A stretch of 42,796 nt of DNA from Candidatus Uhrbacteria bacterium CG_4_10_14_3_um_filter_41_21 (GCA_002782865.1 PFJC01000046.1:1-42796); one strand, 5' to 3'; counted from the stretch's first letter, positions 129 through 41,141 are shown. Notes: generated by a model from the letters alone, not told the origin. Numbers and translations: made by a program.

Positions 129-159
129 CAGACGGTGGTCACTTAGTGACCACCGTCTG
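129..159. repeat. REP-like palindrome, GTCAC-N3-GTGAC family, single copy (locus A)
   Basis: CAGACGGTGGTCACT-T-AGTGACCACCGTCTG, 15-bp perfect arms; 19-nt core identical to the RAYT flank at 5769-5787. Confidence 0.85.
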
Positions 160-160
160 C

Positions 161-189
161 TTGCAAACGGCTTGTATTTACGCTAAAAT
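161..189 (+). promoter_or_regulatory. sigma70-like promoter, near-leaderless for the TPR gene
   Basis: TTGCAA-17 nt-TAAAAT ending 8 nt before ATG 198. Confidence 0.6.
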
Positions 190-197
190 ATTCACAT

Positions 198-899
198 ATG
201 AAATTAGCAACTCTTACTTTTACTTTGGCAATTCTAGTAATAATTGTGGTAGCGGTTTACGGTATAGATAAAAAAACAAATCCGTATCGAGGACTTGTTA
301 CCAGTATAGAAGTTCAATCAGACGAGGAAACGGTTAATTTGTTACAGACGGAATTAGCTACTTGGTTGGCAGCAATAAACGCCAGTGAGTCTGTGGGTGA
401 AAAGCCGGATCTTAACTTATTTGGTTTAGCTGCGACAAATGCCTACTATCTCGGTGATTTAGTTCAGGCCAGAGAACTGTACGAAAAATATTTCGAATAT
501 CACAGTATCAACCCGGTTGCTTGGAATAATTATGGAAATATTCTAAAGAAAATGGAAGATTACGAAACTGCAGAGGCAGCATATTTGAAAGCCTTAGAAC
601 TTGATCCTCAATTTGAAGAGTATTACCGAGATGTTATCGATTTATATCAAGATGTTTGGCCAGAGGAAAAAAATGATAGAATTTTTGAATTACTTGAAGC
701 CAATGTTGAAATAAATGGTCAGAGTCAATGGAATATGGTTTCTCTAGCTAAGTGGTACATTAGAAATAATGATTGTGAGCGAGCAGTTGATTATTATAAA
801 ATTGCTTTGGCTATCTCGATGAATGCAACTGAGTCTCAAGATATTATTGACAACTTGAAAGCGGATATTGAATCAACTAAAACTGCTTGTACAGAATAA
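198..899 (+). CDS. Membrane-anchored tetratricopeptide repeat protein
   Basis: N-terminal hydrophobic helix; TPR-like segments (AWNNYGNILKKMEDYETAEAAYLKALELDP). Confidence 0.85.
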   Translation: MKLATLTFTLAILVIIVVAVYGIDKKTNPYRGLVTSIEVQSDEETVNLLQTELATWLAAINASESVGEKPDLNLFGLAATNAYYLGDLVQARELYEKYFEYHSINPVAWNNYGNILKKMEDYETAEAAYLKALELDPQFEEYYRDVIDLYQDVWPEEKNDRIFELLEANVEINGQSQWNMVSLAKWYIRNNDCERAVDYYKIALAISMNATESQDIIDNLKADIESTKTACTE

Positions 900-903
900 T
901 CAA

Positions 904-2499
904 ATGCGGAGGAATAAAAAAATATTTATAAAAACAATAGCGGTATTGGTGCTTGTTTCAATGCCGACTTTTGTTTTTGCGGAAGTGCCAAACGACGCGT
1001 TTTACGATCAGCAATGGTATCTGGAGCAAATAGGTGCGCCCAATGCTTGGGACACGCAGACAGGTTCAAATGAAATTATAATTGCAGTTTTAGATACCGG
1101 TGTTGATTTAGACCACCCTGATTTGGTTAATAATCTTTGGAAAAATACTGGAGAAATTTCTCGAAACTCTATTGACGATGATAGTAATGGTTATGTTGAT
1201 GATATTTTTGGCTGGGACTTTATTAATGATGATAATTCACCAACACCGGATACGGGTCTCGAAGCATCAAGCGAAGCAGTTAATCATGGTTCATTAATCG
1301 CTGGTATTGTTGGTGCCGGTGGTGATAATAAGATTGGTGTTTCCGGAATTAATTGGAACATTAGTATCATGTCAGTCAGGATTTTGGATGCTGTCGGCTC
1401 AGGAGATGCAAATACGGTAGCACAAGCGGTTTACTATGCGGTCGACAACGGAGCGGATGTAATTAACATGAGTTTTACTGGAAATGTCAATGATCCAATT
1501 TTACGCAATGCTGTAAAATTCGCTTACGAACAAGGCGTGGTGATTGTGTCAGCTCTTGGTAATGAAGGCGAAGATGTTGATAATTATCCAGTCTTTCCAG
1601 CCTGCTACAAATCAAGTGATGGCAACGATGATTGGGTAATAGGCGTGGCCTCGCTTGGAAAAAGTGACAAGCGTTCAGTTTTTTCAAATTACGGTTCAAC
1701 TTGTACTGATTTATCGGCGCCGGGAGAAGATATATATGGCGTTAGTTATTTTAATCCATCGGATGGGTATGATGATAAATATGTCGGTGGTTGGTCTGGT
1801 ACATCCATGGCCTCACCAATGGTAGCGGGTGCTGCCGGTATTTTACTTTCGCAGTATCCAAATCTCACTCCAACTCAAGTAAGAAACGCTTTAAAATTAT
1901 CAGTTGACCCGGTTAGCCTAGATTCTGAATACACAGGTGAGTTCGGAGCGGGGAGATTGAATATTTCCCAAGCCCTTACAATAGCAAGAAATTTTGTTGA
2001 TCAAACTACAGAAACTGACAATCCAGATGTAGGTGATAATTCTAGCACTACATCAGATTTAGAATATTCAGTTAAGGCGCCATCGTTTGCAAGTGTTTAT
2101 TATGTAACCGGTGAAGGTCGACGAGCTTTTATAAGTAGTGCCGCATACTTTACTTGGTTTGATAGTTTTGAGGAGATAGCCAATGTTCAAGACCAAGATT
2201 TAAGCGCCTGGAGCCTTTCGGGATTGATGTTACCTAAGGCCGGGGTAGTGCTGGTTAAGATTCAAAGCGATCCTCAGGTTTACGCTTTGGCGGAAAACTC
2301 AAGTGACGAGTTTTCACCACTCTTGCGCGCCATTCCAGACGAACAGACGGCAATCGCTCTTTACGGCAACGACTGGGCTGACTATGTAATTGACATTGAG
2401 CCAACTTTTTTTGCTAAATTTAGCCAAGGAGAGCCAATGAGCTCGTCAGAGACGGTAGATAAGTCTATAATGAAGAGACGAGAAGATTTAACAAATTAG
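904..2499 (+). CDS. Secreted S8 (subtilisin-like) serine peptidase with C-terminal accessory domain
   Basis: Signal peptide from M904; catalytic motifs LDTG, NHGS, GTSMA; DDDSNGYVDD loop. Confidence 0.93.
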   Translation: MRRNKKIFIKTIAVLVLVSMPTFVFAEVPNDAFYDQQWYLEQIGAPNAWDTQTGSNEIIIAVLDTGVDLDHPDLVNNLWKNTGEISRNSIDDDSNGYVDDIFGWDFINDDNSPTPDTGLEASSEAVNHGSLIAGIVGAGGDNKIGVSGINWNISIMSVRILDAVGSGDANTVAQAVYYAVDNGADVINMSFTGNVNDPILRNAVKFAYEQGVVIVSALGNEGEDVDNYPVFPACYKSSDGNDDWVIGVASLGKSDKRSVFSNYGSTCTDLSAPGEDIYGVSYFNPSDGYDDKYVGGWSGTSMASPMVAGAAGILLSQYPNLTPTQVRNALKLSVDPVSLDSEYTGEFGAGRLNISQALTIARNFVDQTTETDNPDVGDNSSTTSDLEYSVKAPSFASVYYVTGEGRRAFISSAAYFTWFDSFEEIANVQDQDLSAWSLSGLMLPKAGVVLVKIQSDPQVYALAENSSDEFSPLLRAIPDEQTAIALYGNDWADYVIDIEPTFFAKFSQGEPMSSSETVDKSIMKRREDLTN

Positions 2500-2609
2500 A
2501 AATATGAAATCAGAAATTCTAAACAAATCAGAAATTATAAATTTGAAATTTAATTTGTTATTTCGGAGTTAGTAATTGTTTCGGATTTCTTATTTAAGAT
2601 TTAGTATTT
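2500..2609. repeat. Intergenic inverted heptamer array (GAAATNN / NNATTTC type)
   Basis: A-rich 7-mers (gaaatat gaaatca gaaattc) followed by complementary T-rich 7-mers (atttcgg, atttctt, atttagt); similar to 39095-39206. Confidence 0.7.
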
Positions 2610-2617
2610 ATAAAATT

Positions 2618-3625
2618 ATGCCAAGTGAGAAAAAAATTGTTTTAGTCACCGGCGGCGCCGGTTTTATTGGATCGTTTTTATGCGAGTCATTGTTAAAAGC
2701 TGGTAACAGAGTAATTTGTATTGATGATTTTAGTACAAGTAATGTTCGTAACATTGACCCATACCTGCGCAATCCTGATTTTCAATTTTTAAAAATTGAT
2801 ATTAACGAACCGTTTGATTTGGAATCCTTCCCGGAACTCGAACCATTCAAAATCAAATTTGTTGGAATCAATGAAATTTATCATTTAGCTACTCCAACAT
2901 CAATTAAAAACTTTGATAAATTAAAATATAAAACTCTTTTAACAAATTCGGTCGGTACGAGAAATGTTTTAGATATTGCTGTTAAATATAAATCAAAAAT
3001 TCTTTTAACATCTAGCTCTGTAGTTTATGGCAATAGAACTGATGGTGTCGAAGCTTTTGCAGAGGATCACAAAGGAATAGTTGACCACTTGACTCCGCGC
3101 TCTTGCTATGATGAAGGTAAGCGATATGCCGAAACAATGTTTGAAACATACAGTCAGGTTTTTGGACTTGATACAAAAATTGTCAGAATTTTTAGAACTT
3201 ACGGTCCACGGATGCCACTTTTTGACGGACATCAAGTTCCTGATTTTATCCTTCATGCTCTTAATAACGAAGAATTAACATTAAATGGCAAGGCGGATTT
3301 TAGAACATCAATGGTTTATGTGACCGATATTGTCGACGGCCTTGAGAAGGTAATGGCAGCCAAAAAAGGAATTGGACCAATCAATCTAGGAAGTAACGAA
3401 GACTTGAAACTTTTGGATATTGCGGGCAAGATAATCGAAATGACAGGATCAACATCAAAAGTAGTTACCGGTGAAGAGTTACCATTTTTGACTGAGCTCG
3501 GGTTGCCAGATGTCACCAAAGCTAAAGAACAGTTGGGTTGGATGCCTGTTGTCAGACTTAATGACGGTTTAAGAAAAACAATCGATTACATTCAGGCAAA
3601 TAAGATATTATTAATAGGGGAATGA
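2618..3625 (+). CDS. NAD-dependent epimerase/dehydratase, UDP-glucuronate decarboxylase-like
   Basis: VTGGAGFIGS, SSSVVYG, RSCYDEGKR (YxxxK), RIFRTYGPRM; start moved to ATG 2618. Confidence 0.85.
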   Translation: MPSEKKIVLVTGGAGFIGSFLCESLLKAGNRVICIDDFSTSNVRNIDPYLRNPDFQFLKIDINEPFDLESFPELEPFKIKFVGINEIYHLATPTSIKNFDKLKYKTLLTNSVGTRNVLDIAVKYKSKILLTSSSVVYGNRTDGVEAFAEDHKGIVDHLTPRSCYDEGKRYAETMFETYSQVFGLDTKIVRIFRTYGPRMPLFDGHQVPDFILHALNNEELTLNGKADFRTSMVYVTDIVDGLEKVMAAKKGIGPINLGSNEDLKLLDIAGKIIEMTGSTSKVVTGEELPFLTELGLPDVTKAKEQLGWMPVVRLNDGLRKTIDYIQANKILLIGE

Positions 3626-3654
3626 AGTGATTAGTGGCTAGATATAATTCAAAT

Positions 3655-4323
3655 ATGATTGTTGCGATTATTCCCGCCTACAATGAACAAGGGAGAGTCA
3701 GAGTTGCGATCAAAGACGCAGCGCGGTTTGTTGATCGCGTTGTTGTAGTTGATGATCATTCCACTGATAATACTTTGTCTGAAGCTAAAGACGCCGGAGC
3801 GATTGTTTTGCATCATGTTATTAATCGCGGTCAAGGTGCGGCTTTGCAAACGGGCACAGATTACGCCTTAAATATTTTAGACGCAGAAATAATTATACAT
3901 TTTGATGCTGATGGGCAAATGGACGCGGAGGAAATTCCAATGTTGATTGAACCAATTCTAAATGATGAGTCAGATATTGTTTTGGGATCGCGGTTTTTAA
4001 ATAAAAAAGCAAATATACCATTATTTCGTTGGTTGATTTTAAAGGGAGGAATCATTTTTACAAGATTAGTTTCCGGAATAAAAGTAACAGATACGCACAA
4101 TGGATTCAGAGTTCTGTCGCGCAAGGCTGCGTCTGAAATTAAAATTACACTTGATCGCATGGCACACGCTTCGGAAATTCTTGATTTAATCAAAGAAAGA
4201 GAACTGAGATATGTTGAAAAAGCGGTAACGATAAAGTATTCAGAAGAGACCTTGCTAAAAGGACAATCATCGATCGGAGCAATAGCAATTGTTAAAGATG
4301 TTATTAAAAGTAAGTTTTTATGA
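3655..4323 (+). CDS. GT2 glycosyltransferase (polyprenol-phosphate sugar synthase-like)
   Basis: IIPAYNE, VVDDHSTD, NRGQGAA, FDADGQ, GSRF, DTHNGFR; TATAAT just upstream of ATG 3655. Confidence 0.9.
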   Translation: MIVAIIPAYNEQGRVRVAIKDAARFVDRVVVVDDHSTDNTLSEAKDAGAIVLHHVINRGQGAALQTGTDYALNILDAEIIIHFDADGQMDAEEIPMLIEPILNDESDIVLGSRFLNKKANIPLFRWLILKGGIIFTRLVSGIKVTDTHNGFRVLSRKAASEIKITLDRMAHASEILDLIKERELRYVEKAVTIKYSEETLLKGQSSIGAIAIVKDVIKSKFL

Positions 4324-4655
4324 TTTTTCAAATTGCCTTAATTGCCTTTTCATTATTTGGTATTTTGCATGTTTCTAGGCAGTACAGAAGTCAGAAGGTT
4401 AGCGTGTATTGGTTTTTAATCTGGTTTGTATTTTGGTTGATCGTTATTGCGGTTGCACTTTTTCCAGAGGCAACAGACATTATTGCGGATTATGTTGGTG
4501 TAGAAAAGGGAGCGGACTTAATCGCCTATATTGCGATTGTCGTGCTTTCCTACTCGATGTACCGAGTTTTAGTGAGGCTGGAAAGAATGCGTCAAGAGAT
4601 GACGGACTTAACTAGAAAGATAGCAATAGAAAAAGAAAAAAATAATGAAACCTAA
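4320..4655 (+). CDS. DUF2304-like small membrane protein
   Basis: About 3 TM helices, 'IADYVGVEKGADL' motif and coiled tail; coupled to the GT2 by an ATGA overlap. Confidence 0.75.
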   Translation: MIFQIALIAFSLFGILHVSRQYRSQKVSVYWFLIWFVFWLIVIAVALFPEATDIIADYVGVEKGADLIAYIAIVVLSYSMYRVLVRLERMRQEMTDLTRKIAIEKEKNNET

Positions 4656-5721
4656 AGTTGCAATAATTTATCTTCCATACAATAACCTCCGTTATATTCC
4701 GGAGGTTGCTGATTCATGGGTTGTTCAAGATTATCCGGCTGATAGGATAGCAATTTTAATAATTCCAAACGGAAGTAGCGATGGTTCTCAAGATTTTGTA
4801 AAAGATAATATTTTGCCAAGACAGGAAGTTGATTTGCCAGAAGTTATAATGATTGATGACGGAATAAATCATGGCTTTGCCGGTGGGAATAATTTGGGAA
4901 TTAAATGGGCATTGGAAAATGGTTTTGATTATGTTTTTTTAAATAATGGAGATTTAAAATTACATCCAAATACAATTTCAGAATTAGTAGAAGTAATGGA
5001 ATCAGATAAAAGCATTGGCTCGTCTCAGTCGCAGATTATGCTTTGGAATAATGAAAACACGGTAAACACAACCGGAGGAGTAATCCATGTAGCTGGTTAT
5101 GGTTATGCGCGTGACAACGGTAAGAATATTTTAGATATTAAAGTGCAAGATAAAGAAGAAATAGCTTACTGCTCGGGCGCGGCTGTTATTTATAGTTTGG
5201 CCGCGCTTAAAAAAGTTGGATTTTTGGAAAAAGGTTTTTTCATGTATCACGAGGATTTAGAGCTTGGACTGAGATTACGATTCGCGGGATATAAAAATGT
5301 ATTATCCATAAAATCTTTAGCTTTTCACGATTATAAGTTTGGAAAAAACTCGAAAATGTTTCAGTGGATTGAAACCTATCGTTATGTAGTTCTTTTGTCG
5401 TATATGAGGTTTAGGACTCTAGTTCTACTTTTTCCGCTTTTGCTGATGATTGAAATTGGTGTTTGGCTTATGGCTTTAAAGGGTGGTTGGCTCAAGGCAA
5501 AGTTTAAGGCATTAATCTCTTTTTGGTCACCAAAAAATTTAAGGTTAATAAAAAAAATGCGGAGGCGAGCACAACACCTAAGGGTTATTAAAGATAAGGA
5601 TTGGTTAAGGTTTGTGTCTGGTAGAGTTGAAGATCAAGGTAAAGAGTTACAACTGATGAATATTATCAATGATGTTATTGAGGGCATTTGGCAATTAGCG
5701 AAAAGGAATATTGATTGGTAG
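4645..5721 (+). CDS. GT2 glycosyltransferase (rhamnosyltransferase-like)
   Basis: NGSSDGS, NHGFAGGNN, FLNNGD, FFMYHEDLEL. Confidence 0.88.
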   Translation: MKPKVAIIYLPYNNLRYIPEVADSWVVQDYPADRIAILIIPNGSSDGSQDFVKDNILPRQEVDLPEVIMIDDGINHGFAGGNNLGIKWALENGFDYVFLNNGDLKLHPNTISELVEVMESDKSIGSSQSQIMLWNNENTVNTTGGVIHVAGYGYARDNGKNILDIKVQDKEEIAYCSGAAVIYSLAALKKVGFLEKGFFMYHEDLELGLRLRFAGYKNVLSIKSLAFHDYKFGKNSKMFQWIETYRYVVLLSYMRFRTLVLLFPLLLMIEIGVWLMALKGGWLKAKFKALISFWSPKNLRLIKKMRRRAQHLRVIKDKDWLRFVSGRVEDQGKELQLMNIINDVIEGIWQLAKRNIDW

Positions 5722-5765
5722 TCAGCGTGTTATCCAGTGATCGTTAACATTATTGGATGGATCAG

Positions 5766-5810
5766 AATGTGGTCACTTAGTGACCACATTGGTAACTAAG
5801 TGACCACATT
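5766..5810. repeat. 45-nt REP doublet immediately 5' of the RAYT (locus B)
   Basis: AATGTGGTCACTTAGTGACCA-CAT-TGGTAACTAAGTGACCACATT; 21-bp arms with 1 mismatch, each arm itself palindromic; abuts ATG 5811. Confidence 0.9.
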
Positions 5811-6509
5811 ATGAGGAATATTGAGTTTATCACAAATGAATATTATCATGTATTCAATCGCGGAGTAGATCGGCGCGCTATATTTTTAGACGATCAGGAT
5901 TTATTTAGATTTTATAAGATGATGTACTTATTTAATGATGTGAATTATGAGAATCGTAGGGGTGATGAAGAAATAAATACTTTACTTCTGGCAAATTCTA
6001 ATGTTGATATAGTTTATAAAGATAAACTCATTCGCATATTGGGTTTCTGTCTGCGTCAAAACCATTTTCATTTGTTCGTTGAACAGTTAGTTGATGATGG
6101 AATTTCGAAATTTATGCATAAAATAGGATCTGTTTATTCAAAGAAGTTTAATAAAAAAAATAACAGAAAAGGAACTTTATTTGAAGATACATTTGAAGCG
6201 AGACATATAGATCACGATTCTTATTTTAAACATATTCTGCGTTATATTCATTTAAATGTCCTAGATGAGGAAATGCCTGAATGGCGCCAGGGCAAGATTT
6301 GTGATTGGGAGAAAGCTTTAAATATTTTGAATTCTAATCAATGGTCAAGTCACTTGGCATATGTGGGTATAAAACAGCAATTACCAATCATTGATGAAGG
6401 GTTTATAAATGAATATTTTGAATCAGTGGATGATTACACGGCTTTTTTAAGGGAATGGGCACAAGCAACAGATACAACGTGGTCATTTAGTGACCAATGT
6501 GGTAACTAA
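5811..6509 (+). mobile_element. rayT: REP-associated tyrosine transposase (RAYT; IS200-like Y1 HUH endonuclease)
   Basis: YYHVFNRG, HUH motif NHFHL, RKGTLFE..F, catalytic Tyr in RYIHLN, WSS; flanked by palindromes; no tnpB nearby. Confidence 0.88.
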
Positions 6510-6520
6510 GTGACCACATT
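6476..6520. repeat. 45-nt REP doublet overlapping the RAYT stop codon (locus C)
   Basis: AACGTGGTCATTTAGTGACCA-ATG-TGGTAACTAAGTGACCACATT; arms differ from locus B at 2 positions and the loop is inverted; supplies TAA 6507-6509. Confidence 0.9.
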
Positions 6521-6524
6521 AAAT

Positions 6525-7601
6525 ATGAAAATTGCTCAAGTTACACCAATTTATCCGCCGGCCCCTGGAGGTATGGGGAAGGTGGCAGAGGATTACACAT
6601 TGGCTTTTCGCGCTGCCGGGCACGAAGTTGATGTTTTTTTTCCTGATAAATACCCTGGAATTTTTAAGCACGGCCATGCGGCGATTGTTCCAAGTTTTCT
6701 TTGGAAATTACGCAGTTATGATGTTATTCATCTACATTTTCCATTTTATGGCAGTGATCATTTTATAGCGCTAGCATCATTAATTTGGAAAACACCACTC
6801 GTGATTACCTATCACATGAAAAATCAAGGAAGTGGTTTTTTAAGATTTTTATTTTTGGTGCACAAGCTGTGGGAATGGTTTGTAATGTGGCGCGCTTCAG
6901 CGGTTTTGGTAAGCTCGCTTGATTACGCCCGTTCTGTAAAATTAAAACATAAGAATTTAATATCAATGCCATTTTGGATTGATACTGAAAAGTTTCATTC
7001 AGAAGGAAAGATAGAAAGTCGAAATAAACTTGGAATTTCAATTAATCAAATAGTTTTTTTATTTGTTGGTGCCTTGGATCAAGCTCATTATTTTAAAGGA
7101 GTTGATATTTTGCTTAATGCTTGTTCAAAATTACGACTTGATAATTCTTGGCAATTAATTATTGTAGGAGATGGAAATCTTAAAGTTAGGTTTGAGGATT
7201 TGGCACGAGCTAAAAATTTAGAAAAAAAAGTTTTGTTTACAGGCAAGGTGTCTGATAAAGATTTACCTGATTATTATCGCGCGGCCGACATCCATATTTT
7301 ACCTGCAATTGATCGTTCGGAAGCGTTTGGTTTGGTAACGCTAGAGGCAGCCGCATCTGGCAAGGCATCGGTTGTTAGTGATTTACCTGGAGTAAGAACT
7401 TTGGTTGAGCATCAAAAAACTGGTTTAGTAATTCCGGTTAATGACGCTCAGGCTCTAGTGGTGGCATTGACTTGGTTGGTACAGCATAAAGACAAAATTT
7501 CAGAATTTGGCCAAAATGCGCGAAAAATGGCTGTGGATAAGTATAGTAAACAAATTATTTTACAAAAGTTGCAGCAGATTTATAAAGGCGGTAAGGTTTA
7601 G
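6525..7601 (+). CDS. GT4 glycosyltransferase
   Basis: MKIAQVTPIYPP..GG, FVGALDQAHYFKG, SEAFGLVTLEA; start moved to ATG 6525. Confidence 0.92.
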   Translation: MKIAQVTPIYPPAPGGMGKVAEDYTLAFRAAGHEVDVFFPDKYPGIFKHGHAAIVPSFLWKLRSYDVIHLHFPFYGSDHFIALASLIWKTPLVITYHMKNQGSGFLRFLFLVHKLWEWFVMWRASAVLVSSLDYARSVKLKHKNLISMPFWIDTEKFHSEGKIESRNKLGISINQIVFLFVGALDQAHYFKGVDILLNACSKLRLDNSWQLIIVGDGNLKVRFEDLARAKNLEKKVLFTGKVSDKDLPDYYRAADIHILPAIDRSEAFGLVTLEAAASGKASVVSDLPGVRTLVEHQKTGLVIPVNDAQALVVALTWLVQHKDKISEFGQNARKMAVDKYSKQIILQKLQQIYKGGKV

Positions 7602-7606
7602 TTGAT

Positions 7607-8812
7607 ATGAAAATCGGAATTGTTACAAATCTTTACCCTCCATTCCAGCGCGGTGGTGCTGAATATGTTGTTGTTAGAACTGTTGAGGCATTACTTGATG
7701 CTGGCCATGAAGTATTTGTGATTACCGGAATGCCAAAAAATCCGGTTTCTGATCTTTCAACTTATGTTAGCACGCAGGAACGAGTTTATAGATTTCATCC
7801 AAGAAATATATATTTTATTTTACAGGATAACAGATATTGGTGGCCAGTTAGATTACTATGGCATATAATCGACGCATTTTGTACTTGTGGCGGAAATGAA
7901 GTAGGGCGAATTATTCAGTCAGAAAAACCAGATATAGTAATTACACATAATTTAAAAGGAATCGGAATTAGAATTCCTCAGTTTATTCAAAAAGAAAATA
8001 TTCCACATGTTCATGTAGCACATGATTTGCAATTAATTTATCCATCGGGTTTGCTTTTGGCTGGTGAAGAAAACATTACATTTTATACCAAACCATTTTA
8101 CGCAGTTTACAGAAAGGTTTGTAAATGGGCATTTGGAAAACCAGATTTAGTGATTTTTCCATCAAAGTTTTTGCAAGACGCTTATCAAAAGTATGGGTTT
8201 TTTAAGGATTCAAAAATAGAGATGATACCAAACCCAGCCCCAAAATTTGATTTGGTTGAAAAATCAGAACGCTCACAAGGATCTCTTCGATTATTGTTTG
8301 TTGGTCAGCTCGAAGATCATAAAGGAATCAAAATGCTACTATCGGCTTTTAGAAAATTTAATATTGATTCACAACTAATTATAGCTGGTGAAGGAACAGA
8401 GTTGCCTTACATTAAAAAACATATAAAAGATGATAAGCGCATAACTTATTTAGGTTATATTTCAGTGGAGCAACTTGTAAACTGCTTAGAAATTGCCGAT
8501 GCACTAGTAGTGCCTTCACTTTGTTATGAGAATTCACCAACAGTGATTTACGAGGCCTTGCAGGCAGGAATACCAGTGTTAGCAGCTGACATTGGTGGAG
8601 TAGGGGAACTAGTGGAAAATGGAAAGAATGGATTTTTGTTTAAGCCGGGCGATGAAAAAGATTTAATTGGGGCGATGAAACAAATGAATGATCAAAAAGA
8701 TCGTTTTGGAAAAATGCGCGAAGAAATCAAAAAATCCGTTGCTCCTTATAAGTTGGAGACTTATACGAATAGATTAATGGAAAAGTTGAAGGAAGTTATT
8801 GCTCAAAAATAG
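7607..8812 (+). CDS. GT4 glycosyltransferase
   Basis: YPPFQRGGAE, FVGQLEDHKG, ENSPTVIYEA. Confidence 0.92.
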   Translation: MKIGIVTNLYPPFQRGGAEYVVVRTVEALLDAGHEVFVITGMPKNPVSDLSTYVSTQERVYRFHPRNIYFILQDNRYWWPVRLLWHIIDAFCTCGGNEVGRIIQSEKPDIVITHNLKGIGIRIPQFIQKENIPHVHVAHDLQLIYPSGLLLAGEENITFYTKPFYAVYRKVCKWAFGKPDLVIFPSKFLQDAYQKYGFFKDSKIEMIPNPAPKFDLVEKSERSQGSLRLLFVGQLEDHKGIKMLLSAFRKFNIDSQLIIAGEGTELPYIKKHIKDDKRITYLGYISVEQLVNCLEIADALVVPSLCYENSPTVIYEALQAGIPVLAADIGGVGELVENGKNGFLFKPGDEKDLIGAMKQMNDQKDRFGKMREEIKKSVAPYKLETYTNRLMEKLKEVIAQK

Positions 8813-8814
8813 AT

Positions 8815-9431
8815 ATGAAGACATTAATTTTTGATTTTGATGGGACTATTGCGGATTCTTTTGGGATCTCTATTGAGGCTTATAATAAAGTAGCTCCAGA
8901 AATCTGATCTTTGCAGATACCAGATAATGATTTTGACTTGATCAGAAGTTTAGGTGCTAGCGAACTGATGAAAAGATATAAAGTTCGAAAAACACAGCTG
9001 TTTAAGTTAGCTTTAGCGTTCAGAACAGAACTCAAAGATGGGATCACAGATGCACAACCGCATAATGGTTTAAGTGATGTAATTCGTAAATTAAAAAGTT
9101 CCGGAGCCAGTTTAGGAATAATGACATCTAATTCAAAAGATAATGTAGAGAGGTTTTTAGAAGTTAACAATCTGACAAAAGAATTTGATTTTATTTATTC
9201 TGGAAAAAATGTTCTTGGTAAACATGCAGTTTTGAAAAAGATTTTAAAAAAAACACGGTTTGAAAAAAGAGGATGCGATTATCGGAGACGAGACTCGAGA
9301 TATTAGAGCGGCAAAAAAAGCTGATATTTCCAGCGTTGCTGTCACTTGGGGATTTAATAGTGTTGAAGCATTAAAAAAAATAGCCAGACTTTATAGCCGA
9401 TTCCTTTCAGGATTTATTGAATTTCAATTAG
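8815..9431 (+). pseudogene. HAD-family phosphatase (phosphoglycolate phosphatase-like) pseudogene
   Basis: MKTLIFDFDGTIADS, then in-frame TGA 8905-8907; GIMTSN; frameshift in an A-run near 9250 before IGDETRD and VTWGFN; second shift before PDFIAD. Confidence 0.85.
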
Positions 9432-9447
9432 AAATAGCAAAACTCGT

Positions 9448-9990: not shown

Positions 9991-9991
9991 A

Positions 9992-30559: not shown

Positions 30560-30568
30560 ATCGTTTGC

Positions 30569-31030: not shown

Positions 31031-31046
31031 GGGCGTGTCAAGAGGG

Positions 31047-31075: not shown

Positions 31076-31106
31076 GCTGACGCAACAAACAAGCACAGGT
31101 AGCTTT

Positions 31107-31134: not shown

Positions 31135-31179
31135 GCAGCCCTTATGGCTTCGCTACCGGCAAGAAAAATAATTTAAGAT

Positions 31180-31256
31180 GCACCGGTAGCTCAGCCCGGT
31201 AGAGCAAAGGCCTTTTAAGCCTGTGGTCGTGGGTTCGAATCCCACCCGGTGTACCA
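31180..31256 (+). tRNA. tRNA-Lys(TTT)
   Basis: Acceptor GCACCGG/CCGGTGT, anticodon loop CTTTTAA, T-arm GTGGG-TTCGAAT-CCCAC, encoded CCA. Confidence 0.95.
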
Positions 31257-31290
31257 GAAAAATCACACGATAAAATCGTGTGATTTTTCT
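31256..31290 (+). terminator. Terminator after tRNA-Lys
   Basis: AGAAAAATCACACGAT-AAA-ATCGTGTGATTTTTCT, 16-bp perfect stem. Confidence 0.75.
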
Positions 31291-31297
31291 GTCTGAG

Positions 31298-31324
31298 GCT
31301 CAGTATCACCCGGTGATACTGAGC
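31298..31324. repeat. REP-like palindrome (locus D)
   Basis: GCTCAGTATCACC-C-GGTGATACTGAGC, 13-bp arms, core ATCAC-CCG-GTGAT. Confidence 0.75.
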
Positions 31325-31362
31325 ATTTTCATGAGTCGATGCATTTAATATGATTTATAAAT

Positions 31363-31721
31363 ATGGAACCAATCAATCTAGAAAAATTGCTTGCTAAAAT
31401 TAAGAGCGAGTTTTCGGAGTAAAATTTTCTAAGTGGCGCTATATTGATAAAGGGGAGGATAATCATATAATTGTTTTGGATAATAAGATTGTTTTTCGAT
31501 TTCCGCGAAGTAAATCAATTGCCATGCAGCTTGCGGGCGAAATTAAATTGATGTCTGCGATTTCAAAAAAAGTAAAAGTTGGCGTGCCTGTTTACAAGAT
31601 AATTGGACGATCGTCGACTTATGTCGGATATAGTAGGCTACCAGAGAAAGAACTGATACCAGCTAGATTTAATAAAATGTCAGTAGCCGATAAGAATATT
31701 TTTTTCCGTGTCACCCGGTGA
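31363..31721 (+). pseudogene. Truncated, frameshifted aminoglycoside phosphotransferase (APH)-like gene
   Basis: MEPINLEKLLAKIKSEF, frameshift, GVKFSKWRYIDKGEDNHIIVLDNKIVFRFPR..EIKLM..GVP; ends at palindrome E; no catalytic HGD lobe. Confidence 0.7.
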
Positions 31722-31728
31722 CACGGAA
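31704..31728. repeat. REP-like palindrome (locus E)
   Basis: TTCCGTGTCACC-C-GGTGACACGGAA, 12-bp arms, core GTCAC-CCG-GTGAC. Confidence 0.78.
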
Positions 31729-31891
31729 TTATGTTCCGGCTTATTTAGAAAAAGTTGCTGTCTCCTGACCACTCGAATACCTGCATACCTGTCCACTCCG
31801 TGTTATAATTATTATGTAAACATTTAGTGAATTAAGAAAATTAGATGGATTTCTGACGCAGCAAGCCGCTAATTTTCTAAGTGAAGAATAT

Positions 31892-33004: not shown

Positions 33005-33012
33005 TTGAATCA

Positions 33013-33076
33013 TGTCACCGGGTTACCACCAAAGCCGACGGTTGCGATTTTGGCGGCTGGTGGTAACCAGGTGACA
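33013..33076. repeat. Spaced REP doublet, REPIN-like (locus F)
   Basis: TGTCACCGGGTTACCACCA ... TGGTGGTAACCAGGTGACA, 19-bp arms with 1 mismatch, inner AGCCG/CGGCT. Confidence 0.78.
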
Positions 33077-33081
33077 ATCTT

Positions 33082-35700
33082 ATGAACAATCAAAAACAAA
33101 TCACTTGGCATGCCCAGAGCGCAAAAGATGTTTTGCACTCTTTTGAAGTTTTACAAACCGGTCTTTCCGAAAATCAAGTTAGAGACCGACTAAAGGAATT
33201 TGGAAAAAATCAATTACCACAAACATCGCCAAAATCTACGGTGGCGATTTTTTTGGCTCAATTTGGAAGCCCACTAATTGCGATTTTAGTTGTAGCAGCA
33301 TTTATCAGTGTTGGTTTTAAGGAATGGTTAGACGCTGGTGTGATTTCATTTGCAGTTCTTATTAATGCTGTTTTAGGTTTTGTTGAAGAATACAAAGCAG
33401 ATAGATCACTTAGAAAACTTCAATCTTTTTTGCCAGATAAAGCCAAGGTTCGTCGAGGAGGCGCTGTTTTAAATATCGATTCCATAAACATTGTTCCAGG
33501 TGACATTATTATTTTAGGCACCGGTGACAAAATTACAGCTGATGGCCGTATTATCAGCTCTAGTTTTTTGCAAGTTAACGAGGCAGCGCTTACCGGAGAA
33601 TCAATGTCAGTTAAAAAAGATGTTGTCCCAGTTGATATTGGTGCGAGTATTGCAGACCAAACCAGCATGGTTTTTGCTGGCACTGTGGTTGTAAATGGTC
33701 GCGCTGAAGTGATAACGGTTGAATCTGGCGAAAGAACGCAAATCGGTCAAATATCAAGATTAGTTGCAGATGTTGAAGATGAAAAAACGCCACTGCAACA
33801 GCAGTTAGCAGTGTTTGCGCTTTGGCTGGGCGGTGCGGTTTTGATTATATCCTCGATTGTTTTTGTAGCTGGCTTGCTCCGTGGTTTTGCGTTTTTTGAT
33901 ATGTTTAAGATTTCGATAGCGATTTCAGTTTCGGCAATTCCAGAAGGGCTGATTGTCGCCACGACAGTAATTTTGGCAATCGGGATGCAAAGGATTTTAA
34001 AAAAGAAAGCCCTGGTCCGTCGTTTAGTAGCAGCTGAGACTTTAGGAAGTGTGTCTGTAATTTGTATGGACAAAACCGGTACGCTCACGACCGGCGAAAT
34101 GAGCGTGACTGAAATCAGATTTACGAATGGCGAGTTATTGGAATCAAATCAAAGATCAGAAATCAGACAAATTTTGGGAGTAACCAGCGCAGCTCTGGTT
34201 GATGAAAATGGAGAAAATCCAGTTTTTTCCGGATCACCGACCGAGATAGCACTAGCAAAAGAGTATTGGCCAGACAGGGAAAAAATTGGAATAGAAAAAT
34301 ATGCAGAATTATCAGAACTTCCATTTGATCCGGCTTTTAAATTCAAAGCCGGAGTTTATAAACAAAATGGATCAACTGTTATGTTTGTCGTCGGTGCGCC
34401 CGATATTTTGTTGGAAAAATCAGATTTAAGCGATCAGCAAAGAAAAAAAATGCAAAGCGTTTTTGAAGAAATGACTGAGCGCGGGTTACGGGTTTTGTTG
34501 ATTGCCAAAAAGGATTTAAACGGCCAACAAACGGAAATTACATATGACGGTATCACTGATATTTCGGTTGTCGGTTTTGTCGGTCTGCAAGATCCGTTAC
34601 GAAGCAATGCTCGACATACAGTTGAAACGGCCGGAGAAGCCGGATTAAAACCGGTGATGATTACCGGCGACCATGTCATAACCGCCACGCTTGTTGCTCG
34701 CGAAGTTGGATTGCTGATTGATGAAAGTGGAATTATGACCGGATTGGAGCTTGATAAAATGAGTGATGCCGATTTGATTGCTCATATAGATAAAATCAAT
34801 GTTTTTGCGCGCGTCCTTCCAAGTCATAAACTTAGAATTGTTCGCGCCTGGCAAGATAGCGGCGCATCAGTGGCGATGGTAGGCGATGGCGTTAACGATG
34901 CTCCGGCAATGAAAGCGGCTGACATTGGTGTAGCGCTTGGGTCGGGAACTGAAGTTACTAAGGAAATCGCTGATATGGTTTTGCTGGATAATAATTTTCA
35001 AACAATTGTTGAGGCAATCCGCGAAGACAGGACCATTTTTGACAATATCCGCAAGATGATTGTTTATCTGTTGTCAGACAGTTTTAGTGAAGTGGTTTTA
35101 ATTTTTGGGGCGATTATTTTAAGCCTGCCTATTCCTATTTTGCCAGCGCAAATTTTGTGGATCAATTTGATAACCGACGGATTTCCGAGCGTTGCTCTAA
35201 CATTTGAACCGCCGGAAAAAGGGGTTATGAAAGATCCGCCACGCAATAAAAAAGCGCCGTTGTTAGATGCGGAAATGAAAGTTTTGATTTTTATTATCGG
35301 ATTGTTTACCGACGCTTTGCTCTTTGGAATTTATTTTTATTTACTTGGCCAAGATTTAGCGATACATCACATCAGAACATTTATTTTTGTGGCGCTGGGC
35401 ATCAATTCACTAATTTATATTTTTGCTGTTCGTAAATTCAGATCAAGTATTTTTCGATCAAATCCATTTGAAAATTTATATTTGATCGCCGGCGTAGGAA
35501 TAGGTTTTGTATTTTTGTTTATTCCGTTGGTGGTTCCTTATTTTAGAAATTTATTTGAATTTGAAGCTTTGTCAGTTACGGAATGGTTAGTGTTGTTGAC
35601 GCTGGCGTTATTCCAATTGGTTTTGATTGAAATTGTTAAAGAGATATTTAATTTGAAGAGAAACCGCCAGCTCGGCGAATATCAGATAAAAGTCCTATAG
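33082..35700 (+). CDS. Cation-transporting P-type ATPase (P2A, Ca2+-like)
   Basis: TGES, IPEGL, DKTGT, MITGD, GDGVNDAP, QILWINLITD. Confidence 0.95.
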   Translation: MNNQKQITWHAQSAKDVLHSFEVLQTGLSENQVRDRLKEFGKNQLPQTSPKSTVAIFLAQFGSPLIAILVVAAFISVGFKEWLDAGVISFAVLINAVLGFVEEYKADRSLRKLQSFLPDKAKVRRGGAVLNIDSINIVPGDIIILGTGDKITADGRIISSSFLQVNEAALTGESMSVKKDVVPVDIGASIADQTSMVFAGTVVVNGRAEVITVESGERTQIGQISRLVADVEDEKTPLQQQLAVFALWLGGAVLIISSIVFVAGLLRGFAFFDMFKISIAISVSAIPEGLIVATTVILAIGMQRILKKKALVRRLVAAETLGSVSVICMDKTGTLTTGEMSVTEIRFTNGELLESNQRSEIRQILGVTSAALVDENGENPVFSGSPTEIALAKEYWPDREKIGIEKYAELSELPFDPAFKFKAGVYKQNGSTVMFVVGAPDILLEKSDLSDQQRKKMQSVFEEMTERGLRVLLIAKKDLNGQQTEITYDGITDISVVGFVGLQDPLRSNARHTVETAGEAGLKPVMITGDHVITATLVAREVGLLIDESGIMTGLELDKMSDADLIAHIDKINVFARVLPSHKLRIVRAWQDSGASVAMVGDGVNDAPAMKAADIGVALGSGTEVTKEIADMVLLDNNFQTIVEAIREDRTIFDNIRKMIVYLLSDSFSEVVLIFGAIILSLPIPILPAQILWINLITDGFPSVALTFEPPEKGVMKDPPRNKKAPLLDAEMKVLIFIIGLFTDALLFGIYFYLLGQDLAIHHIRTFIFVALGINSLIYIFAVRKFRSSIFRSNPFENLYLIAGVGIGFVFLFIPLVVPYFRNLFEFEALSVTEWLVLLTLALFQLVLIEIVKEIFNLKRNRQLGEYQIKVL

Positions 35701-35795
35701 GTTCTAAATGACTTATATTAAAAAATCCACGCATAAGTGAGGATTTTGATTTGTATATTCAGTCAATTGGCAATTCCTGCTATAATTGGATCACT

Positions 35796-37253: not shown

Positions 37254-37278
37254 GGGCGAGGCGTTGCCTCGCCCGTAC
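37250..37278. repeat. GTAG-type REP between murD and murE
   Basis: GTAG-GGGCGAGGC-GTT-GCCTCGCCC-GTAC; supplies the murD stop TAG. Confidence 0.75.
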
Positions 37279-37291
37279 GACGAATGTGGAT

Positions 37292-38608: not shown

Positions 38609-39116
38609 GGAGAAAAATATTTTACATTTAAATGATGGTGAGAAGATTCTGGGAATTGTCAGAAGGAGTTTTGTGAGTGAGTTATTTAAAATAATTTTTG
38701 TTTGTATTTGGATTTTATTGCCATTTTTCTTTTTCTTTCCACTTCTGCGACTTGGACTTTTTGGATTTTTCTTGTTTGCGATTTTAGCAGTCGGCGGATT
38801 ATTGTATGCTTTTAAAATTTGGATGAATTTGTCATACACGATGCTGATTGTAACTAGTCAGCGCGTGATCGATGTTGAACATCATGGTCTTTTTGATCGT
38901 GACATTGCGGAAGCTGGGCTTTCATCTGTCAGTAGTGTAAAAGTATTAAAAAGAAATATCTTTCAAAGAATCATAAACATTGGCACAGTAAAGGTTAAAA
39001 CAAAAAAATCAGATAAGTTTGATATTGAAATTGATGGCGTACGCAAGCCGCAAACAGTGCGTCAATTTGTCGAAGATGTAAAAGAATTAAGTTCTAAATA
39101 TGAAATTAGAAATTAG
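38601..39116 (+). CDS. Membrane protein with bacterial PH-like domain
   Basis: Two TM segments, then IVTSQRVIDVEHHGLF and INIGTVKVKT. Confidence 0.75.
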   Translation: MSKEKNILHLNDGEKILGIVRRSFVSELFKIIFVCIWILLPFFFFFPLLRLGLFGFFLFAILAVGGLLYAFKIWMNLSYTMLIVTSQRVIDVEHHGLFDRDIAEAGLSSVSSVKVLKRNIFQRIINIGTVKVKTKKSDKFDIEIDGVRKPQTVRQFVEDVKELSSKYEIRN

Positions 39117-39206
39117 AAACAAATCCGAAATACTAAATCCGAAATTCAATTTCATGCTTCTTATTTCGAATTTGTTTCTAATTTAGGATTTCTAATTTCG
39201 TATTTA
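39095..39206. repeat. Inverted heptamer array (GAAATNN / NNATTTC type), second copy
   Basis: taaatatgaaattagaaattagaaacaaatccgaaat ... atttcgaatttgtttctaatttaggatttctaatttcgtattta; supplies the PH gene C-terminus and stop. Confidence 0.75.
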
Positions 39207-39212
39207 AAATCT

Positions 39213-39623
39213 ATGTCTAAAAATAAAAACAAAATTAAATGGTTTATATTAATCAATTTTGTTATTTTATTTTTTTTGGTAATTGCATTTGGTAAGGAAT
39301 ATGTAGGAAATATTCAAGTTGAGCGCGAGATTGCGCAGTTGCAACAGCAAAGAAGCGAATTTGAAAACGAACAGCTTGATACTCTTAATTTAATCTCTGA
39401 TTTATCAAGTGAGTATTATTCAGAACAGGAAGGCAGAACAAAGCAAGGATTAGGGCGCGAGGGTGAAACATTAGTAATAATTCAGTATGAATCCAACACA
39501 GTCACAGACGGCGAAGATTTAGCAACTTTGGGAAGTTATAGTTTAGAAAGTTTGGGTAATCCGGCTCGTTGGTTTTTGTATTTTTTTGCTAACGATACTT
39601 TTGCGAAGTTTGAAAATATATGA
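39213..39623 (+). CDS. Septum formation initiator (FtsB/DivIC-like)
   Basis: TM plus coiled coil, 'E.EGRTKQGLGREGETLVII' motif. Confidence 0.7.
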   Translation: MSKNKNKIKWFILINFVILFFLVIAFGKEYVGNIQVEREIAQLQQQRSEFENEQLDTLNLISDLSSEYYSEQEGRTKQGLGREGETLVIIQYESNTVTDGEDLATLGSYSLESLGNPARWFLYFFANDTFAKFENI

Positions 39624-40489
39624 GTGTAATTCATCGGGGCGAACAATTGATGCCTCAGGTTCGTTTGCATTTTAGTCATGTTGCTACCTTTATTTTTTTA
39701 ATCTTAATTTCTTTTGTATTTTTTATTGGCGTTCATGGTTTTTATTTTCAAAATTGGCACACGGGCGCAGCTCGAGTAGCAGCTAAATTTTTACCTATCC
39801 CGGCCGCTATAGTTGAGGGTGACATTATTTGGTATAAGCAGGTTTCTGAAACTGCAAATTTATTAATTGCGGCCGAAGAAGAGTCTGAAGGGGCTTTTGA
39901 TATGGCGCTTGAGGCCGTGATTCGGCAGGTGTATGTTGAACATTTAGCAGAGGAGTTGGGTGTTTCTGTCACAAGAGATGAGGTCAGTGCTTATGAAGTT
40001 GATATGATTGACGGCTTTTTGGAAGAAGTGGGTTGGTCGGAAAGGGAGTACAGGAATTATGTTGTCAAACCTTTGCTTTTAGCTCAAAAAACCGAGGAGG
40101 CGTTGTTGAATTCTTACGATTATCAGGCAATTGCTCGGGATGATCTTGCTAAAGTTTTATTGGATCTTGAACTTGGTATCCCGTTTTCCGATTTAGCCGA
40201 GCAATATTCGGAAGACGGTTCAGCTGTCTTTGGCGGTGATATCGGATTATTTGAGAAGTTTAAGCTTCCGGTCGGAATGGAGCCGGTTTGGGATTTGGAA
40301 GTTGATCAAGTATCAGAGATTTTGGATTTGGGAGACTCGTATGCTTTGGTCAAAGTTTATGATAATGTTGTCTTGGAAGGAGAAAGAACTCATGTGGCTT
40401 TACAGGTGATTTTGGTAAAAAAAGCTACACTGTCTGAAGTGCTTGAAGATTTTGCCAGAGCGCAGGAAGTAAAGGTATTTGTGCGTTAA
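39620..40489 (+). CDS. SurA/PrsA-like parvulin peptidyl-prolyl isomerase
   Basis: PAAIVEG, FSDLAEQYSED.SA..GGDIG, VSEI. Confidence 0.85.
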   Translation: MSVIHRGEQLMPQVRLHFSHVATFIFLILISFVFFIGVHGFYFQNWHTGAARVAAKFLPIPAAIVEGDIIWYKQVSETANLLIAAEEESEGAFDMALEAVIRQVYVEHLAEELGVSVTRDEVSAYEVDMIDGFLEEVGWSEREYRNYVVKPLLLAQKTEEALLNSYDYQAIARDDLAKVLLDLELGIPFSDLAEQYSEDGSAVFGGDIGLFEKFKLPVGMEPVWDLEVDQVSEILDLGDSYALVKVYDNVVLEGERTHVALQVILVKKATLSEVLEDFARAQEVKVFVR

Positions 40490-40517
40490 ATCCGGTTGTG
40501 TTAAAAGTAGCGCGAGT

Positions 40518-40593
40518 GCCGATGTAGCTCAGTTGGTAGAGCAGTCCCTTCGTAAGGGAAAGGTCGCCAGTTCAAGTCTGGCCATCGGCTCCA
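40518..40593 (+). tRNA. tRNA-Thr(CGT)
   Basis: Acceptor GCCGATG/CATCGGC, anticodon loop TTCGTAA, T-arm GCCAG-TTCAAGT-CTGGC, encoded CCA. Confidence 0.95.
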
Positions 40594-40668
40594 GTTATCG
40601 CTAAGTCGGCGGTCTGTCCGCCGTAGCTTAAAGAGCGAAGGCGGATTCGAGTCCGCCTGGTGGCTCCA
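40594..40668 (+). pseudogene. tRNA-like remnant: T-arm, acceptor 3' strand and CCA, with a hairpin repeat in place of the D and anticodon arms
   Basis: GGCGG-A-TTCGAGT-CCGCC-TGGTGGC-T-CCA at 40640-40668; no canonical D or anticodon arm. Confidence 0.55.
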
Positions 40669-41088
40669 GATTATAAAGAAGTTAAGTTCTATTCGGACTT
40701 TTTTTGTTTTTAGCAACTAACAGATCCGGAACGTAATTCATTCATCGGAAATTATACCTTCGTCGATTGGTGGAGATCAGCCTTAGAGGGCATTATTACG
40801 TTTGTTTCGGAAAGTGAGGAGCGGAGAGTCAAAATCGCTTTTCCTGATGGCATTATATAAGAGGAGTTGTTGCGATATTTTTTCTTCTTTTTAATCTCAC
40901 AAATTAATCCAAATGGTATATAACGTTTCAATATATGCGATGTTGCGACCGTACAGGGGCAATATGGGTGGAGTGAAGCGGAATCGCATAGCTAGTGTTA
41001 TACAATATAATAATATATTCTTAATCCCGAGCTATAGCGAGGGGTGTGTAATCAAGGCAATTTTATAAATTTTTTAACAATAATTTCC

Positions 41089-41141
41089 ATAAAGTGAGGC
41101 AACTTGGTTACCTCATTGGTAACCAAGTTGCCTCACTTTAT
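41089..41141. repeat. REP doublet (locus G), diverged homolog of the RAYT flanks
   Basis: ATAAAGTGAGGCAACTTGGTTACC-TCATT-GGTAACCAAGTTGCCTCACTTTAT, 24-bp perfect arms; 33/45 identical to locus B without gaps. Confidence 0.85.

Follow-up and report, generated by a model that had tools for sequence, protein, structure and literature searches.

In Escherichia coli and Pseudomonas, genes for REP-associated tyrosine transposases (RAYTs, also called TnpA-REP) are flanked by repetitive extragenic palindromes (REPs) or by the doublets known as REPINs, and the resulting units are called REPtrons, as far as the accessible text of the sources goes (PDB 4ER8; PMC2817692, PMC3116915, PMC3337134, PMC5581495 and PMC6006769). 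TIRtrons, with their TIRYT genes (Di Nocera et al. 2013, PMC3733652), correspond to subclass 2.1 of TnpAY1, which is group 1 of Bertels, according to Quentin et al. 2018 (PMC6006769, their Table 1). Here we analyse a 42,796-nt contig of Candidatus Uhrbacteria bacterium CG_4_10_14_3_um_filter_41_21 (PFJC01000046.1; the whole contig is called the window below), along which a preliminary description had marked seven palindromic loci, A to G. Very probably the window holds one complete low-copy module of the REPtron or TIRtron type, consisting of a transposase gene, RAYT1, with its own palindromes B and C, together with a solo copy of the same palindrome at A and, at G, a solo copy of the palindrome of a paralogue, RAYT2. 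Work on REP/RAYT systems has been almost confined to Proteobacteria and a few other phyla, and among the papers listed by a literature search none described such a system for the candidate phyla radiation (CPR, or Patescibacteria). The repeat system is of a known kind, here in a little-studied lineage.

The source genome (G000; G-numbers denote genomes and C-numbers the contigs of G000) has 883 kb in 59 contigs with about 40% G+C, and the window is the entire contig C29, or 4.8% of that genome. The hairpin family of RAYT1 is called REP1 and that of RAYT2 is called REP2. For comparison we used 61 genomes of the order, the genomes of related bacteria being 0.5–1.2 Mb in size, and a genome of the same genus, G001, which is 82% complete and has 65–76% DNA identity to G000.

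The system resembles a REPtron in its low-copy HUH/Y1 enzyme with divergent paralogues, in a gene flanked by its own palindrome, and in the joint variation of gene and repeat. As in REPtrons and REPINs, inverted units form one long hairpin with compensated changes, and the copies are intergenic or, occasionally, in frame inside genes. It differs from a REPtron in that at least 7 and 4 loci take the place of the dozens to hundreds (classically more than 100) of copies, the stems are AT-rich with a C-TTA/TAA-G centre and have no GT[AG]G foot, the start codon abuts one hairpin and the stop codon lies inside the other, the enzyme scores below the NCBI cut-off for REP transposases, and the host is of CPR type with a genome of about 0.9 Mb.

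The resemblance to TIRYTs and subclass 2.1 is in the enzyme: RAYT1 has 232 amino acids against a subclass median of 238, and its NHFH and YIHLN motifs fit the NH[YF]H and Y[IV]HLN of the subclass, in a comparison made by eye against Table 1 of PMC6006769; the proline that ends the subclass motif Y[IV]HLNP follows N149 in shorter homologues only. TIRYT genes, too, have flanking repeats of low to moderate copy number, some of them self-complementary or double palindromes, that differ from paralogue to paralogue, in the part of the literature available to us. In contrast, Quentin et al. (PMC6006769), to the extent of the accessible text, report no REP-like sequence near subclass 2.1 genes, whereas here cognate palindromes bracket the genes; further, the GGGGWSAS motif is absent and the C-terminal part of RAYT1 has no Pfam helix-turn-helix. 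If the placement in subclass 2.1 holds, the published picture of that subclass as lacking REPs is incomplete.

With insertion sequences (ISs) of the IS200/IS605 group, such as IS608 and ISDra2, the module shares the Y1 fold, hairpins at both gene ends, presence or absence between relatives and, on contig C14, a cargo cassette bounded by two hairpin copies. Unlike them, it has no identical copies, a Y-x-x-x-N motif and no tnpB.

RAYT1 is a Y1 transposase gene framed by its own hairpins

The module and the loci that go with it are as follows, with the energy of the predicted fold and its z score against shuffled sequences:

5722–6524, plus strand: whole module, 803 nt, made up of 44 nt of unique DNA, then B, RAYT1, C and AAAT
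5766–5810, plus strand: locus B, a REPIN-like REP1 doublet directly 5′ of the RAYT1 start codon; −21.8 kcal/mol, z −9.09
5811–6509, plus strand: RAYT1, RAYT-like HUH/Y1 transposase gene, 232 amino acids, with HUH motif H85-F-H87 and tyrosine motif Y145-I-H-L-N
6477–6520, plus strand: locus C, a REP1 doublet at the RAYT1 3′ end; −13.3 kcal/mol, z −4.84
129–159, unstranded: locus A, solo REP1, perfect, with 14-bp arms and a TTA loop; −17.1 kcal/mol, z −8.65
41089–41141, unstranded: locus G, solo REP2, perfect, with 24-bp arms and a TCATT loop; −27.6 kcal/mol, z −12.89
C53:8852–9562: RAYT2, paralogue 56% identical to RAYT1, with hairpins C53:8805–8851 and C53:9563–9605 on its two sides

RAYT1 is a gene for an HUH/Y1 single-strand DNA transposase, RAYT-like by family, fold and catalytic residues. 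It matches the Pfam family Y1_Tnp (PF01797) at 38.5 bits (cut-off 23, E = 1.4 × 10−9), and RAYT2 does so at 28.6 bits in a six-frame search. All 29 aligned homologues share H85, H87, Y145, H147 and N149. In the AlphaFold model (pLDDT 91), Y145 lies within helix 136–152, and the best solved match found by Foldseek (E = 8.4 × 10−6, TM score 0.63 normalised to the target) is 4er8_A, the E. coli REP-associated transposase in complex with a REP hairpin; the IS608 and ISDra2 transposases (2a6m, 2vjv and 2xma) come next. A sequence search of the solved structures with RAYT1 gave no meaningful match. The protein is about 80 amino acids longer than IS200/IS605 transposases and has a helical C-terminal extension.

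The hairpins fit closely around the gene. The last base of B immediately precedes the RAYT1 ATG; in its short form B has 11-bp arms and a TTA loop (5766–5790), in its long form arms of about 20 bp with one mismatch, and in the minimum-energy fold the long hairpin base pairs TCA (5762–5764) with the TGA of the ATGA at the RAYT1 start. C holds the last 11 codons, and the TAA stop codon (6507–6509) forms the loop of its second unit; the ATG of a glycosyltransferase gene follows just after C, at 6525. The central spacers of B (ACATT) and C (AATGT) are mutual reverse complements. RAYT2 is framed in the same way, by G-type hairpins on both sides. The preliminary description had linked the palindromes to an HUH enzyme, a link that the family match, the invariant catalytic residues, the match to 4er8_A and the position of B and C against the start and stop of RAYT1 bear out.

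A related genome lacks the module

In G001, the stop codon of the GT2 gene and the start codon of the GT4 gene are one base apart (TGAtATG), at the site where G000 has the 803 nt of the module. This exact absence between two abutting genes would also suit an autonomous, recently inserted IS of the IS200/IS605 type formed by RAYT1, B and C, with the solo hairpins as its miniature derivatives (miniature derivatives of IS200/IS605 elements are called PATEs). Each end has a hairpin, as the left end and the right end of IS608 do; the gene family is patchy, with homologues in 36 of the 61 genomes and up to 10 matches per genome; and two REP1 copies bound the 837-bp cassette on C14. The IS explanation is nevertheless improbable in our view. 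There are no near-identical copies, the two paralogues being 56% identical and paralogues elsewhere sitting on long branches. The tyrosine motif is Y-x-x-x-N, against Y-x-x-x-Q in the IS200 subclass. A genuine IS200-type gene, the third Y1 gene of G000 besides RAYT1 and RAYT2, scores 111.7 bits on the IS200 model NF033573, which neither RAYT1 nor RAYT2 matches. Finally, with 65–76% DNA identity between G000 and G001, an insertion need not be recent.

The IS200-type gene (C48:8125–8645, 138 amino acids) lies between two CCCCAATGC-TTG-GCATTGGGG hairpins, a repeat with six copies on five contigs (C7, C13, C40, C42 and C48).

At A, G001 shows no synteny, the upstream gene being different, and there is likewise none at D, E, G or the C14 cassette. 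A CCAGACG heptamer in G001, at a similar distance from the TPR gene start that follows A in the window, was considered as a counterpart and set aside as probably due to chance.

One repeat accounts for A, B and C, and another for G

The pattern GTMACNNNGTKAC has seven matches in the window (138, 5772, 5792, 6502, 31710, 33014 and 33063), against 0.01 expected from 100 shuffles. The preliminary description had listed 11 copies of a 13-bp core at seven loci at gene boundaries. All of them are present, the other four (6482–6494, 31305–31317, 41099–41111 and 41119–41131) being one or two letters off the pattern, and the seven loci are intergenic or overlap the last codons of a gene. In the whole of G000 the motif has 13 sites, 7 of them on C29, against 1.6 ± 1.4 in 30 Markov re-simulations and 4 for a reversed-pattern control; the genome-wide enrichment over background, whose lack the preliminary description had named as refuting the idea, is there.

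All seven loci fold far better than shuffled sequences (z −4.8 to −12.9). Perfect arms extend over 14 bp in A (129–159), 11 bp in the first unit of B (5766–5790), 12 bp in D (31298–31324), 11 bp in E (31704–31728) and 24 bp in G (41089–41141), and the folds of B, C and F are long hairpins of 45–64 nt.

The loci had been taken for a single dispersed family, and in this the preliminary description does not hold up: A, B and C are REP1, G is REP2, F belongs to a six-locus family of its own, E has two siblings and D is a singleton. The copies of REP1 at A, B and C have 19–31 identical bases and a 5′ flank in common, and B and C directly bracket RAYT1. A and B share TCAGA and a 19-nt core and differ at two compensated pairs. 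REP1 is found at seven loci, A, B, C, C33:5718 (a doublet abutting the start of a small HTH_17 gene), two on C14 and one on C57 (C57:20269, a diverged inverted doublet with perfect 21-bp arms); C56:21184 is a doubtful copy. The foot TCAGA(A)T occurs in three of them, A, B and the left copy on C14. REP2 is found at four loci, namely G, the two hairpins flanking RAYT2 on C53, which G matches, and one on C20; its foot is AAAGTGAGG. The hairpins of REP1 and REP2 align collinearly, with a mean column identity of 72%.

The local symmetry of the palindromes had been proposed in place of copying from a fixed repeat. A single copied repeat plainly accounts for A, B and C as well as for the C33 and C14 copies, and because A and B share the outer frame TCAGA, the arms of A were inherited, not created on the spot.

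The REP2 hairpin on C20 (C20:5378–5416) is read in frame inside murI, the glutamate racemase gene, where the hairpin and nine flanking bases make up 16 extra residues that are absent from the orthologues in G001, G003 and G007.

Changes in the hairpin arms are compensated

Among the eight long hairpins of G000, 12 of 24 base pairs change on both sides, compared with 6.5 ± 1.5 after shuffling, and 88.1% of cells pair, compared with 77.1%; none of 500 shuffles reached either value. Slid controls gave 24–44% pairing and two or three double-changed pairs. Of the eight doublets in G027, six combine complementary loop triplets (TTG/CAA twice, TCG/CGA once and TTA/TAA three times), which differ from doublet to doublet, and two do not. 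In metagenome relatives (loci L122–L124, L134 and L175), the hairpins on the two sides of a single gene are unlike in their outer arms or in one pair while each is perfectly paired, and their loops are often inverted. Inverted spacers include ACATT and AATGT, GAC and GTC, and CCGGA and TCCGG. The claim that symmetry is maintained locally, which the preliminary description had made, agrees with both the double-changed pairs of G000 and the triplets of G027.

Template switching homogenises the arms of inverted repeats, inverts spacers and maintains hairpins, according to PMC8604942, PMC8794818 and PMC7202029, and the three outcomes of this kind of mutation in quasi-palindromes that these sources describe, namely arm homogenisation, apparently compensatory multi-base changes and spacer inversion, all occur among the present hairpins. 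This kind of mutation is a general replication error that needs no transposase, and it explains symmetry but not the placement of a hairpin beside its own Y1 gene. The symmetry of the arms fits structural constraint and equally fits template switching in quasi-palindromes; the data do not separate the two. The right-hand RAYT2 hairpin could be read as carrying a symmetric deletion of 2 nt, which would be proof of arm-to-arm copying; this reading was dropped, as a compensated substitution fits the alignment equally well.

Across relatives, the hairpin changes with the gene

The survey of flanks covered 60 distinct full-length homologues, each with 120 nt available on either side, drawn from loci of 30 relatives, 10 further regions and 80 metagenome loci, leaving out partial genes, genes at contig ends and duplicate proteins; a hairpin had to have perfect arms of at least 7 bp and a 3-nt loop. 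Such a hairpin is present in at least one flank of 36 of the 60 homologues and in both flanks of 18, against a background of 93 among 1,670 tiles taken from these loci. The upstream and downstream hairpins have an identical apical 7-mer in 17 of the 18 homologues that possess both, and the 18 have 17 distinct 7-mers among them. Of 54 hairpins, 33 are closed by a C-G pair and 16 have TAA or TTA as their loop.

Genes that are sisters have hairpins resembling each other. In a tree of 35 homologues, to which hairpin labels were assigned by reading, RAYT1, RAYT2 and a gene of G025 form a clade (support 98/92) with the cores GTCAC, GCAAC and GTAAC. Sister paralogues in G044 have GTCAC-GAC-GTGAC and GTAAC-GAC-GTTAC.

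The motif itself is more restricted than the gene. In counts summed by hand over the 61 genomes, it clearly exceeds the reversed control in G000 (13 versus 4), G027 (17 versus 5) and G044 (27 versus 2) and weakly in G026 (9 versus 5). The 36 genomes with a homologue have 135 motif sites (control 124), 57 of them in three genomes, and the 25 genomes without one have 47 (mean 1.9; control 66). Co-occurrence with the RAYT clade, a further check proposed in the preliminary description, is seen in G000, G027, G044 and weakly in G026; it fails in the other 32 homologue-bearing genomes, which have a mean of about 2.2 sites versus 1.9 in genomes without the gene. Taken together, the two conditions named in the preliminary description have a mixed outcome. 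Because the excess is confined to three or four of the 61 genomes, the 13-bp core tracks particular transposase sub-lineages, not the whole clade.

The palindromes might instead be ordinary regulatory sites, such as operators of dimeric proteins, terminators or RNA stabilisers, unrelated to transposases. All loci lie between genes, A lies just 5′ of a promoter-like site, the copy at C33:5718 abuts the start of the small HTH_17 gene, and stable stems are predicted in RNA. More exactly, A is placed between a terminator-like hairpin (98–125) and the promoter-like site (161–189), with the start of a TPR gene at 198. However, an operator needs no compensated stem of 14–24 bp, one and the same palindrome flanks its own Y1 gene upstream and downstream in 17 of 18 cases and varies from gene to gene, and one copy is translated in frame in murI. 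In a terminator scan of 1–7000, A and B were absent from the matches, neither being followed by a T run, and among the REP1 copies only the first unit of C (6480–6496) was matched, on the minus strand and with a weak tail. A purely regulatory origin is very improbable.

A proposed mechanism

Gene family, fold, catalytic residues, adjacency, gene-specific hairpins in relatives, covariation and the empty site in G001 are the observations on which we build a model of the module; binding, cleavage, mobility in trans and template switching are steps that we infer. In single-stranded DNA, for example at a replication fork, REP1 and REP2 would fold into hairpins. The cognate enzyme would read the shape of the hairpin and its apical bases and nick the hairpin foot with its catalytic tyrosine. 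It may occasionally move or copy hairpin-bounded DNA, leaving a few dispersed copies, and through such movement a module would come to be present in one genome and absent from a related one. The arms would stay complementary if unpaired variants lose recognition, and template switching in quasi-palindromes could additionally homogenise the arms and invert the spacer.

The following points weigh against the interpretation of the window as a complete module of the REPtron or TIRtron type. First, with 7 and 4 loci, REP1 and REP2 fall far short of classical REPs, which have hundreds of copies, although the present counts are lower bounds in a genome fragmented into 59 contigs, in which further REP1 and REP2 copies and further Y1 genes may be missing. 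Second, neither REP1 nor REP2 has a GT[AG]G foot. Third, on the equivalog model REP_Tyr_transpos of NCBIfam (NF047646), RAYT1 and RAYT2 score 40.5 and 28.3 bits, below the cut-off of 80, and the subclass to which RAYT1 is closest by motifs, 2.1, is reported in the accessible text of PMC6006769 to lack REPs. Fourth, 24 of the 60 surveyed homologues have no perfect hairpin with a 3-nt loop in either flank (several have hairpins with longer loops), and G007 has 8 motif sites against 3 for the control but no homologue that we could find. Fifth, contigs of four metagenome runs, compared with window positions 1–9000, showed A, B and C free of variants, insertions and deletions and gave no support for excision; three joints (693/6147, 801/8250 and 2730/7075) had sides of just 20–21 nt and were disregarded. 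Finally, the proposed activity of RAYT1 is drawn from sequence, predicted structure and comparison.

Two paralogous pairs of enzyme and hairpin in a genome of less than 1 Mb allow a side-by-side comparison, with few copies, covariation and an empty site in a relative. They offer a compact natural system for studying what a Y1 enzyme reads in a hairpin and how palindromes stay symmetric.

D, E and F belong to other hairpin repeats

The remaining three loci of the window are as follows:

31298–31324, unstranded: locus D, perfect palindrome with 12-bp arms and a CCG loop; singleton
31704–31728, unstranded: locus E, perfect, 11-bp arms around a CCG loop; placed where an orphan open frame of 96 codons ends
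33013–33076, unstranded: locus F, 64-nt long hairpin, member of a six-locus repeat family; −25 kcal/mol, z −6.76

D, E and F are other, unrelated hairpin repeats of G000 that match the loose 13-bp pattern for separate reasons. D lies downstream of a tRNA-Lys gene and its terminator-like hairpin (31255–31291) and has no sibling in G000 at up to 3 mismatches in 16 nt. E has siblings with the same outer arms at C33:30117–30139 and, less close, at C18:14009–14039. F belongs to a family with a 60-nt hairpin whose other members are on C8, C33, C22, C1 and C47; its consensus, GCCACCGGGTTACC..., begins with GCCAC, compared with GTCAC in F, and is not palindromic at the core. This family was not found in 60 relatives, save for one match with one mismatch.

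A broader reading, in line with the preliminary description, takes the loci as products of one HUH-linked process that would act on all seven and more, need an apical core of G-Y-M-A-C, three bases and G-T-K-R-C, and leave the outer arms free or make them locally. Some features of the genome fit this. Among the 168 hairpins of G000 with a 3-nt loop, the apex class G[CT][AC]AC has 8 members where the average class has 0.66 (rank 4 of 2,304), and 5 of the 8 lie outside REP1 and REP2 (E, C1:16227, C9:14427, C18:14009 and C27:5914); hairpins closed by AC...GT number 18, against 0–5 in five shuffled genomes; E and its siblings differ by compensated changes; and around one gene in each of the metagenome loci L122–L124 and L175, outer arms differ with pairing kept. 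On the other hand, the consensus of the F family is not palindromic at its core, D stands without a sibling, G000 has no third RAYT to serve D, E or F, the TCAGA frame common to A and B marks the arms of A as inherited, and most relatives with a homologue show the motif at background level only. We consider a single process unlikely, though with some chance of being right. It is similarly doubtful, though conceivable, that some of these additional hairpins, including E, are ancient relatives that have since diverged.

The 96-codon open frame (31431–31718) lies between D and E and ends inside E. It matches no Pfam family even at an E value of 10 and has no homologue in 40 relatives, and an impression from the sequence that it is kinase-like was rejected on these two grounds.

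The exact REP1 core has 63 matches in 596 Gb of other genomes, which is no enrichment (at or below chance by a rough estimate), and none of the 63 adjoins a RAYT1 homologue. A few lie in long palindromes with unrelated arms (L059, L067, L084, L091, L093 and L100). Four of these, in metagenome-assembled genomes of Actinomycetota (L059, L067, L091 and L093), and one in Kaiserbacteria (L100) have the apex TGGTCAC-TGA-GCGACCA or TGGTCAC-TAA-GTGACCA. We judge such matches to be unsurprising, since a query that is itself a palindrome favours the apices of the many hairpins in genomes, and the common apex is probably a chance outcome of that query; the repeated A-C mismatch in the actinobacterial palindromes is odd.

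Hairpins at the borders of a cassette and of an ATPase gene

On contig C14, two perfect 27-bp hairpins of REP1 type (C14:34464–34490 and 35301–35342; locus L200) bound an 837-bp cassette of higher G+C that contains two small open reading frames for membrane proteins and adjoins a tRNA gene, with an extra half-copy after the second hairpin. In the window, F forms the left edge of a 2.8-kb stretch, comprising F and a P-type cation ATPase gene (33082–35700), that G001 lacks: the spacer there is about 43 nt, compared with 2,791 nt in G000 (33005–35795), and in G001 the glycosyltransferase gene and the next gene adjoin across the gap.

These arrangements raise the idea that RAYT-cognate hairpins double as landing or capture sites for gene cassettes, an HUH-based counterpart of the attC hairpins of integrons. 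A palindromic site forms the same hairpin on both strands, so a nick at the foot on each strand would stagger the break by the length of the hairpin, and fill-in after the capture of DNA would thereby duplicate the hairpin. The F hairpin at the edge of the ATPase insertion and the bracketing of RAYT1 may also belong here. Capture of this kind is speculative and quite improbable on present evidence; the link between REP1 hairpins and the cassette is nonetheless a testable lead on how accessory genes enter tiny genomes.

Further observations

Metagenome contigs searched with RAYT1 yielded full-length relatives of only 26–47% identity, along with short N-terminal fragments of 71–73% identity, and no sister strain; polymorphism of the module is therefore not shown by them, and the loci served for the flank statistics. 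In one contig of run X19, the DNA upstream of B and the 5′ half of RAYT1 is different, a junction that assembly may have created, because B and the copy on C33 have an exact 31-nt stretch in common. In three of the four runs (X19, X21 and X24), sequence that agrees with the window to base 128 continues into other DNA, where the window has A instead. The replacing DNA is not in the G000 assembly and, as an impression only, resembles the end of a 5S rRNA gene.

Rfam found two tRNAs only over the whole window, with F below family cut-offs. The stretch that contains G (40594–41680) gave nothing with Rfam or ARAGORN. It begins after tRNA-Thr (40518–40593) with a part (about 40600–40680) that resembles the 3′ half of another tRNA; about 1 kb without long open reading frames follows, includes G and may be the remains of integrated DNA.

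A GC-rich palindrome, GGGCGAGGC-N3-GCCTCGCCC, occurs at window positions 37254–37274 and on C14, C26, C32 and C52. On C26 it is preceded by CGTAGG, and it constitutes a separate, GTAG-type REP family of G000.

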